A stretch of DNA of 8,400 bases from a virus. Lineage: Duplodnaviria; Heunggongvirae; Uroviricota; Caudoviricetes. The number at the start of each line of letters is the position of its first letter. Position 1 is the first letter of the stretch. Made by a program: the position numbers and the translations under genes. This document shows, one piece after another, positions 4,104 through 4,926 of the stretch. The notes beneath the pieces are model-generated. The model made no database searches and had not been told where the DNA came from. It saw only the letters and a program-made list of their open reading frames with translations. Location of the stretch: positions 1 through 8,400 of the IMG/VR virus record IMGVR_UViG_2778261349_000002; one strand, given 5' to 3'.

Positions 4104-4926
4104 GGCTTACCCCCTTGCTGACTGGTTTTACCTGTGCCCTGACGTGCTGCACGTGGCGGGCAAATTTCTGCTCCCACTGAACCTGCGTGAAAACCTTCCC
4201 CTCCGCCATCCAGTAATCCCGGAATGCGGCAAGCTCAGCAGGTGTAAATTCCGGCTCAGGCAGAGCCATACCCCACACTGCTGCCCGTTGTCGAAAATCC
4301 GGCGACGGCTGCCAGACAGTAGTCATCGAAAATTTCCCGATGGGTTCGCTCAGGCCGTCCAGGTATTCAGGTTCGGCTGTCTGCAACGGCGCACCATTCG
4401 ACTCACTGGTCGGAATACTCTCGCGCGCGTTATGTGTGGGGTTTAATTCTGTATCTGTATCTTTATCTGTCGTGACTTGTCGTGACAGATGCGTGACACG
4501 TCGTGACTCATCGTGACAATCAGCATTATGTTTCCGCAGCTTTTCCCGCTCCCGCTGCGCTCTCTTACGCTCTGCCGGGGATTTTGCCGTTTGCGAAACG
4601 TTACCATTGTCCTCTTTCAGCACCTGACGTTTTTCCCATCCGGAAATAAGGTCACCATCCAGAACCCGCCCCTGCATTGCATGCAAAATTGAATCAATTA
4701 CGTCTTCCGTCACATCAAGCGCACTTGCTAAATCTTCCGTCGTGACATCAATGTGACCACGTAGTGACACGCCGTGACATGTCGTGACATTTCGTGACGC
4801 GCTCACCAGAAGGTGGATATACACTGCCATCACTGTTGCGATTGGCTGTCCTGATACCCTGGCAATCGTTCGCCACTTGGGGTCATTTGGCATGTCATGC
4901 CACAATCTGAGCCAGGCATTAGCCAT
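3895..4926 (-). CDS. O-like replication initiator (343 aa from ATG 4926; track start 4932 is a GTG)
   Basis: Position upstream of the P-like gene, and two arrays of helically phased GTGAC-core iterons plus an AT-rich stretch lie inside its coding sequence. ATG at 4926..4924 preceded by GAGG with a 5-nt spacer. Confidence 0.7.
   Translation of the reverse strand: MANAWLRLWHDMPNDPKWRTIARVSGQPIATVMAVYIHLLVSASRNVTTCHGVSLRGHIDVTTEDLASALDVTEDVIDSILHAMQGRVLDGDLISGWEKRQVLKEDNGNVSQTAKSPAERKRAQREREKLRKHNADCHDESRRVTHLSRQVTTDKDTDTELNPTHNARESIPTSESNGAPLQTAEPEYLDGLSEPIGKFSMTTVWQPSPDFRQRAAVWGMALPEPEFTPAELAAFRDYWMAEGKVFTQVQWEQKFARHVQHVRAQVKPVSKGVSHAASGSTASRAVQEIRAAREQWERDNGFISNGNGLEAVGAYGGGVFEPLDSEERGRTFEALDCPDWCDD
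4443..4517. repeat. Candidate replication origin: iteron array 1 (five CGTGAC-core repeats at 4471, 4481, 4492, 4502, 4512) plus adjacent AT-rich hexamer tandem repeat (4449..4470)
   Basis: Read directly: tgtcgtgac repeated with 10-11 bp spacing (one helical turn), flanked by tctgta tctgta tcttta tctgt. In the direction of O-gene transcription the order is iterons then AT-rich region, as in lambda ori. Confidence 0.7.
4742..4798. repeat. Iteron array 2: six GTGAC-core repeats at 4742, 4753, 4764, 4774, 4784, 4794
   Basis: Read directly; spacing 10-11 bp. Lies in the N-terminal coding region of the O-like gene, about 225 bp from array 1. Confidence 0.65.

Follow-up and report, generated by a model that had tools for sequence, protein, structure and literature searches.

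It is textbook knowledge that a replication origin can lie within the gene of its own initiator. In phage lambda, ori is located in gene O, where initiator-binding repeats in the middle of the gene have an AT-rich tract on their transcriptionally downstream side, a P-type helicase loader is encoded next door, and the N-terminal part of the protein is origin-specific and the C-terminal part exchangeable. Certain other replicons, namely P1 (incC/incA), F (ori2/incC) and P4 (ori/crr), possess two arrays of one iteron served by a single initiator, with one array at the origin; the other array limits replication in P1 and F and is required in P4 (crr). Here we analysed a stretch of 8,400 nucleotides (nt) of a Caudoviricetes virus (positions 1 to 8,400 of IMG/VR record IMGVR_UViG_2778261349_000002; hereafter the window), in which a minus-strand replication initiator gene carries two iteron arrays and an AT-rich hexamer repeat. 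We propose that this segment is probably the vegetative replication origin of a Shiga toxin 2a (Stx2a) prophage, placed within the gene of its own initiator. The arrays of P1, F and P4 flank the initiator gene or lie kilobases away, unlike the two arrays described here, both of which are inside coding sequence and are therefore also constrained by translation.

The layout of the present gene resembles that of lambda in each of the respects named above, but the initiator is not homologous to O, and its repeats are direct repeats of 10-11 bp with a 6-7-bp asymmetric core, as compared to the ~19-bp units with an internal inverted repeat in lambda. Further differences are the second array in the region coding for the DNA-binding domain, and the AT-rich element being a strict hexamer repeat. 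Iteron number varies between lambdoid phages, thereby adding residues to O, +13 amino acids (aa) in Stx phages (PMC7466680); phages 933W and P27 have six iterons, and this gain of +13 aa compares with +7 aa in the array of the window.

The closest studied analogue, as judged by layout, is Rep of the staphylococcal plasmid pSK41 (RepA_N family), the DnaD-like N-domain of which binds Rep boxes in the linker-coding centre of rep, and in pPR9 a natural swap of ~500 bp comprises the N-domain plus origin (PMC5703833). The two systems share a winged-helix N-domain of ~120 aa, boxes placed centrally in the own gene, an origin-encoded central segment which is a dispensable linker, and a host- or partner-specific C-domain. 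They differ in that the present protein has no RepA_N Pfam match, belongs to a phage of Gram-negative and not a plasmid of Gram-positive bacteria, has a DnaT-like C-domain, and is encoded by a gene with two arrays, one of them in the N-domain coding region. Initiators which bind direct repeats in the cognate gene beside an AT-rich unwinding element are also known in SPP1 (G38P/oriL), TP901-1 (ORF13), Tuc2009 (Rep2009) and r1t (ORF11) (PMC6316719, PMC5737612, PMC8965321), an arrangement predicted here from the sequence. A further likeness to these replisome organizers is the NCBI name 'phage replisome organizer' and a weak Pfam similarity, below threshold, of some homologues to Phage_rep_org_N. 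oriL of SPP1 lies in gene 38 (PMC6316719, PMC5737612), and oriR is a second region, apart from oriL, to which the organizer G38P binds (PMC6316719). However, oriR is at a distance of ~13 kb and is accompanied by an AT-rich element of its own, whereas the second array described here is 225 bp away and has none.

The gene differs from lambda, SPP1, the lactococcal organizers and pSK41 in the second array in the reader-domain coding region, in the concerted change of both arrays between clades and in the sequence-strict hexamer element. The second array was previously undescribed as far as our literature search went, and may have been described elsewhere. The literature found on replication-region ('Eru') typing of Stx phages yielded no iterons, DnaT or origin for this module type, that on ydaU and oriJ a passing citation only, and no paper combining 'replisome organizer' and 'iterons' was found for Gram-negative phages.

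Iteron arrays and AT-rich element of the initiator gene

Array 1 contains five iterons with the core CGTGAC and array 2 contains six with the core (C)GTGAC (Table 1). Their steps are all 10 or 11 bp, with a mean of 10.25 in array 1 and 10.4 in array 2, and therefore all iteron copies are on one helix face. The two arrays, separated by a gap of 224 bp, have an identical position weight matrix. Nine of the 10 copies of CGTGAC in the window were located within the arrays, and the count of 10 exceeded the 3.4 ± 1.6 expected for the whole window and was reached in none of 200 shuffles. In 26 kb of prophage, these were the only two places with three or more copies of GTGAC on one strand within 60 bp, and Tandem Repeats Finder identified period-10 arrays at 4469-4518 and 4764-4798. 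Since the gene is encoded on the minus strand, its 5' part contains array 2 (residues 43-62) and its middle part contains array 1 together with the hexamers (residues 136-156). Array 2 codes for SRNVTTCHGVSLRGHIDVTT, the predicted beta-hairpin between helix 3 and the helix-turn-helix, and array 1 codes for CHDESRRVTHLSRQVTT in the disordered inter-domain linker.

Array 1 is directly abutted by the AT-rich repeat, detected by Tandem Repeats Finder as TCTGTA x3.8 with a period of 6 at 4448-4470, and the least stable 24-mer of the whole gene (4443-4466) falls in this element. The same holds across the family: in ~45 of ~50 homologous genes the least stable 24-mer is the AT-rich element after array 1 (z = 2.5-4.7). 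The homologues have (GATAAA/GATACA)n, n being 2-8, or a repeat closely similar to it, which begins exactly 9 nt after the start of the last array-1 core. GC content at the third codon positions (GC3) of the hexamers is 0 even where GC3 of the gene is 0.65-0.76, in GC-rich hosts, and therefore it is the DNA sequence of the hexamers that is under selection, beyond the D-K/D-T peptide. The strict conservation of GATAAA/GATACA suggests that the sequence of the putative unwinding element matters beyond its AT content. Thus, tandem repeats are present inside the initiator open reading frame (ORF), with an easily melted AT-rich tract on their downstream side and a P-type loader gene directly downstream of the initiator gene. 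Array 1 and the hexamers are best read, by analogy, as a lambda- or pSK41-type origin, consisting of initiator sites and an unwinding element.

Array 2, having the same core and a similar copy number, might itself be a second independent origin or a late initiator-binding site, for which SPP1 provides a precedent (PMC6316719). But no low-stability element is present at array 2, the least stable stretch being the one that adjoins array 1, and with the arrays only ~225 bp apart one nucleoprotein complex would form. We consider a second origin or late site to be highly improbable.

The initial annotation of this DNA had described five CGTGAC-core repeats at 10-11 bp spacing, six GTGAC cores about 225 bp away and an AT-rich hexamer repeat abutting array 1, all of which were found at the coordinates given in Table 1. 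The layout of iterons followed by an unwinding element, which it had compared to lambda, is retained in the ~45 homologues mentioned above. Its suggestion that the repeats constrain the protein was borne out by cores being read in three frames and by length steps of 21 bp, equal to 7 codons. The peptide TTDKDTDTE, which it had pointed out, is indeed encoded at array 1 and the hexamers, as residues 150-158 in the 343-residue numbering. The comparison of iteron number across relatives that it had called for gave 2-6 copies of array 1 in homologues and both arrays in about three quarters of them.

Conservation of both arrays in the N-domain family

The comparison was made with 52 loci from one-genome-per-species bacterial assemblies, having 43-92% identity to the first 160 residues, to which 80 close viral contigs and several phages were added; the ~50 homologues were drawn from gamma- and beta-proteobacteria. 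Most of the genes have arrays at nt 128-180 and nt 350-450 (gene coordinates), and in about three quarters of the ~50 homologues the two arrays are found at matching places in the gene. Array 1, with 2-6 copies, is directly upstream of the AT-rich element in homologues. The two arrays of each gene have one core, and this core varies by clade: Escherichia, Aeromonas, Pseudomonas and Bordetella, among others, have GTCACG, a second clade has CGAACGCA and a third has GTAACG. Since the cores match even where clades differ, array 2 is very probably read by the same protein as array 1. In a test that made no use of the core, the array-2 zone was the part of the gene with which the 70 nt upstream of the AT-rich stretch had most 6-mers in common; this was so for 36 of 49 genes. 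At least two tripeptides were shared between the hairpin and linker zones in 46 of 118 family representatives, as compared to 2 of 115 for a control zone.

Codon usage points to selection on the DNA itself. Among 19 divergent GTCACG-type genes, the conserved codons of the array-2 core had a modal-codon frequency of 0.98, as compared to 0.53 for other conserved codons of the domain (p = 5.7e-6). An inverted core copy, which codes for V-T of ALDVTE, is present 33 bp downstream (gene sense) of array 2, and most homologues of the GTCAC type have it at the corresponding place (nt 192 or 213). Wherever one of the 19 genes has Val at this site, the codon is GTG, and in the Enterobacter locus L108, which has GTAAC cores, the site reads GTTAC. 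From these sequence comparisons, array 2 is a conserved family feature selected at the DNA level and not an oddity of one prophage. The initial annotation had called the second array unusual, whereas it turns out to be the rule in the N-domain family. Its view of that array as a possible auxiliary initiator-binding or autoregulatory site gains from the DNA-level selection and from the core shared with array 1.

Repeats of this kind could also be slippage-prone, microsatellite-like DNA or a peptide repeat, functionless as DNA sites. Copy number does vary among close relatives, from 3 to 9 for the hexamers and from 3 upward for array 1. In E. coli, alleles of array 1 have from 3 copies to a visibly longer run, with encoded peptides between CHDESRRVTTD and CHAHVTTCHDESRTCHDESRTCHDVSRHVTTD. 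In in-frame variants the change in array length is two iterons, i.e. 21 bp or 7 codons: array 2 of the window has +7 aa (TCHGVSL) as compared to phages Evi and Tritos, and array 1 of Aeromonas phage pAEv1818 is shorter by 7 aa. In viral contigs L049 and L055 the last 10-bp iteron (AAGTCACGAC) is duplicated exactly, which gives six copies, a frameshift and an ORF truncated at 157 aa. But the core GTCACG (gene sense) is read in all three frames, as V-T, x-H-x and S-R, synonymous sites are frozen in the 19 divergent genes, both arrays switch core jointly between clades, and the hexamers hold AT third positions against host codon bias. A peptide repeat or pure slippage as the explanation of the arrays was rejected on the three reading frames together with the synonymous-site conservation, and repeats that do nothing as DNA are extremely unlikely. 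The arrays are, on this comparative evidence, DNA repeats rather than peptide repeats.

The N-terminal domain accompanies the arrays

Among 56 loci, the N-domain was present in 55, and the YdaT-like, Cro-like and P-like genes and the DnaT-like C-domain were each present in only 6-8. These counts bear on whether the arrays are bound by some other protein, YdaT/CII-like, Cro-like or of the host, as regulatory sites unrelated to replication. YdaT-like and Cro-like genes are indeed located directly upstream of the initiator gene, but neither accompanies the arrays as the N-domain does. A host factor is opposed by the cores differing in closely related hosts (GTAACG in Enterobacter, L108, as compared to GTCACG in E. 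coli), and no DnaA box with at most one mismatch was found inside the initiator gene. We therefore regard another binder as very unlikely, and infer that the N-domain is what binds the arrays.

The N-domain and the C-terminal half behave as separate modules. In phages Evi and Tritos the N-domain and the arrays are the same but the C-terminal half is a different one, and in Pseudomonas phage P7869 the N-domain/array module is paired with a primase-helicase. The C-terminal half of the window's protein is joined to a DUF1376 N-domain, without these arrays, in YdaU of Rac-SA53, and the C-module was found joined to at least four unrelated N-modules. Since the megablast matches to two parental types overlap exactly at 4448-4468, the hexamer repeat is the recombination joint. 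Arrays and unwinding element are inside or directly after the reader-domain coding sequence, and therefore reader and sites would move as a cassette of ~480 bp in recombination.

In the ydaU gene of Escherichia phage Rac-SA53 (L004) the hexamers are shared, and ~60 nt upstream of the KDTDTD hexamers an inverted repeat, TGTTCAAACA ... TGTTTGAACA, replaces the GTCACG arrays. This inverted repeat may be the binding site of the DUF1376-type N-domain.

Two Pseudomonas aeruginosa records filed as 'plasmids', CP137943.1 (L139) and CP124671.1, are circular, phage-sized (50.9 kb) and without a typed replicon, and have the initiator module beside a DnaB-like helicase gene. They probably represent phage genomes, episomal or induced, which were assembled as plasmids, and as a sign of autonomous replication they are only suggestive. 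The plasmid collection otherwise contained only chromosome-sized or large E. coli records with the module, and gave no clear evidence of the module as a plasmid replicon.

Architecture of the initiator protein

RefSeq, which annotates the identical prophage in RM10466, names the initiator 'DnaT-like ssDNA-binding domain-containing protein' or 'phage replisome organizer', the second name being the one given by NCBI, and PHROG assigns it to the replication-initiation families phrog_1408 and phrog_3729. Its C-domain matched PF17948 in Pfam (E = 2.9e-17, 62.6 bits against a cut-off of 25) and the solved DnaT structures PDB 6aep and 4ou6 (E = 1e-20 to 2e-19; 1.4e-20 for 6aep), and Foldseek aligned it to 6aeq_A with a TM-score of 0.91 on the target. 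The NCBIfam DnaT equivalog gave a score of 94.5, below its cut-off of 201, and therefore the protein is DnaT-like and not DnaT. The lambda-O domain (Phage_rep_O) was not matched, PF17948 being the only family returned at E <= 0.01 by a Pfam scan of the whole protein. Thus, the term 'O-like', used for the gene in the initial annotation, holds for the role, by analogy, and not for the family, since a DnaD-like N-domain and a DnaT-like C-domain are present in place of the lambda-O domain.

Sequence searches with the N-domain gave nothing significant in Pfam, and a profile of 30 sequences found nothing in PDB. PF09681 (phage replisome organiser N) was weakly matched by 9 of 30 homologues, below threshold (best E = 0.0046), and by the N-domain of the window not at all. 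A first structure model, built on an 18-sequence alignment, was poor, with a mean predicted local distance difference test (pLDDT) score of 57, and with it Foldseek returned only the DnaT domain and weak CRP- or MarR-type matches. A second model, built on 97 sequences, placed residues 11-44 and 61-95 at pLDDT 90-97. The predicted layout consists of three helices, a beta-hairpin at residues 46-58 (pLDDT ~70), a helix-turn-helix and a wing, followed by a basic helix (117-138) and a disordered stretch (139-165). The inter-domain linker is disordered in both models. On structural comparison of the predicted model, the fold is nearest to the N-terminal domain of DnaD and to the RepA_N initiator. 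Certain N-domain homologues (P0153, P0155, P0156, P0182, P0191 and others) are proteins of ~180 aa in which the domain is fused to an HNH nuclease (PF01844, PF14279) and not to a replication C-domain.

The hairpin is the sole hypervariable stretch of the otherwise highly conserved N-domain, its R-G turn being invariant. It changes with the iteron core, reading NVT-RG-HxDVT with GTCACG and NATE-RG-RTQ with CGAACGCA. Array 2 could accordingly be both a binding site and the code for that part of the reader which sets iteron specificity (hairpin 46-58), an idea we rate as very improbable. If it were true, with the hairpin contacting bases, a change in the repeat would alter site and reader in one step, which would be a built-in route to new origin specificities, and hence incompatibility types, in mosaic phages.

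Proposed initiation and the role of array 2

The proposed sequence of events is as follows. Upon induction, transcription from an early rightward-type promoter would lead to expression of the initiator, whose N-terminal DnaD-like winged-helix domain would bind the 10-11-bp iterons head-to-tail on one helix face. The complex on array 1, one iteron-length from the hexamers, would cause these to melt, and the disordered linker, the DnaT-like C-domain and the neighbouring P-like loader would bring in host DnaB. Array 2, together with the inverted core, would be a second array for the same domain, and would most likely cooperate with array 1 by bridging or looping the ~225 bp, resulting in more occupancy and more stress at the unwinding element.

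The main alternative to bridging is a negative, regulatory role of array 2, in which array 1 and the hexamers would still be the origin. Initiator bound to array 2 would then be an autoregulatory roadblock that stops or slows transcription of the initiator gene, the loader gene and the genes further downstream, or would limit initiation by handcuffing to array 1, be it on its own or on a sister molecule. In favour of this role, array 2 shares its core with array 1 under DNA-level selection, has no AT-rich partner, and has a conserved inverted core 33 bp away; autoregulatory operators of iteron plasmids typically contain the iteron in inverted orientation, and the incA and incC iterons limit initiation in the P1 and F plasmids. 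But a lytic phage gains little by limiting copy number, a block of the early transcript would also cut late-gene expression, and array 2, at nt 128-180, is inside the coding region and not at a promoter. A scan of 3800-6200 for promoters and terminators gave counts no higher than in shuffled sequence, and thus does not support a promoter or terminator within the gene at either array. On balance, we consider negative control rather unlikely.

Measured between the final core of array 2 and the first core of array 1, the distance ranged from 195 to 319 bp across homologues, with no helical phase kept; the distance between the arrays is also given as 219-319 bp. A rigid loop of fixed phase was rejected since the distances have no common remainder modulo 10.5. 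This variable, unphased distance argues against a rigid loop but decides neither bridging nor negative control; pairing in trans, as in handcuffing, would tolerate it.

Several observations weigh against the proposed origin and the bridging role of array 2, the variable spacing just described among them. No model phage with this N-domain was found, and about a quarter of the homologues have no detectable paired arrays. The covariation of cores is confounded by phylogeny, independent core changes being few. The 'recognition' helix of the helix-turn-helix is acidic. The AT-rich element is short (~28 bp), and no such element of low stability was found beside array 2, either in the window or in homologues. 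With these points taken into account, an origin formed by array 1 and the hexamers, with array 2 in a cooperating role, is the explanation we favour.

Prophage context and neighbouring genes

E. coli RM10466, like other strains that produce Shiga toxin, has integrated beside potC a prophage to which the window is 100% identical. In this Stx2a prophage, the stx2a genes are ~8 kb further down the early-late transcript, outside the window. Positions of the features are listed in Table 1.

Table 1. Features of the initiator gene and its neighbours (window coordinates)
Feature	Position	Strand	Remarks
Array 1, five iterons, core CGTGAC	4471..4517	plus	starts 4471, 4481, 4492, 4502, 4512; steps 10, 11, 10, 10
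Array 2, six iterons, core (C)GTGAC, gene sense GTCAC(G)	4741..4798	plus	starts 4742, 4753, 4764, 4774, 4784, 4794; steps 11, 11, 10, 10, 10; full CGTGAC in 4 of 6 copies
Single inverted core copy	4709..4713	minus	
AT-rich hexamer repeat	4442..4470		gene sense GATAAA GATACA GATACA GAATTAAA; proposed unwinding element and mosaic joint of the gene
Replication initiator gene, holding the repeats	3895..4926	minus	343 aa from MANAW; frame open to GTG at 4932
N-terminal winged-helix domain (residues 1-102)	4621..4926	minus	putative iteron reader
DnaT-like single-strand-DNA-binding domain	4132..4332	minus	within the exchangeable C-terminal module
Lambda-P-like helicase-loader gene	3441-4103	minus	RefSeq annotates 3441-3902 (153 aa)
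CII/YdaT-like gene	4995-5420	minus	
Cro/YdaS-like gene	5424-5705	minus	

The lambda-P-like frame is open for 220 aa, and homology reaches upstream to ~4060-4103. The loader matched PF06992 in Pfam (E = 1.3e-15, 58 bits against a cut-off of 26) and phrog_109 in PHROG (E = 1e-62, with residues 14-220 aligned), and the Pfam Phage_lambda_P alignment begins at residue 58, upstream of the annotated start, which is residue 68. The loader probably starts earlier than annotated, overlapping the final ~100-200 nt of the initiator gene in a different frame. Database proteins P0043 and P0068 resemble initiator-loader fusions.

The repressor-like genes are on the strand opposite to the replication genes. 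Two of them, tandem helix-turn-helix genes at 5808-6179 and 6243-6659 (plus), have similar C-terminal stretches of ~45 residues (...TPNQ.ELLQ.F.AFP...KKEAM...VARWLA), which suggests that the immunity region has an oligomerisation module that was duplicated or is shared. A RelB/RelE toxin-antitoxin pair at 6629-7108 (plus) is also within the immunity region, and a Hok/Gef-type toxin gene at 618-773 (minus) is downstream of the replication genes. At 4419-4441 (plus), directly beside the hexamers and on the strand opposite to the gene, a hairpin resembling a terminator precedes TTTAATT; as such counts match shuffled sequence, it may mean nothing.

Significance for Shiga toxin prophages

The amount of Shiga toxin produced depends on prophage replication after induction, and the type of replication module has been linked to lysogen stability and virulence, with no origin described there for this module type (PMC8044961). 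The module is common: of 5,426 complete E. coli genomes, 654 match the 2.4-kb region over nearly its full length, and the N-domain family comprises 835 clusters at 50% identity (E <= 1e-10). The result is a testable map which gives the presumed 6-7-bp initiator sites, the place where melting is expected to start and the recombination point of the module. The family also offers a natural system for studying the evolution of DNA that serves as binding sites and codons at the same time, in quanta of two iterons (21 bp, 7 codons), as well as the role of a second iteron array in a lytic replicon.

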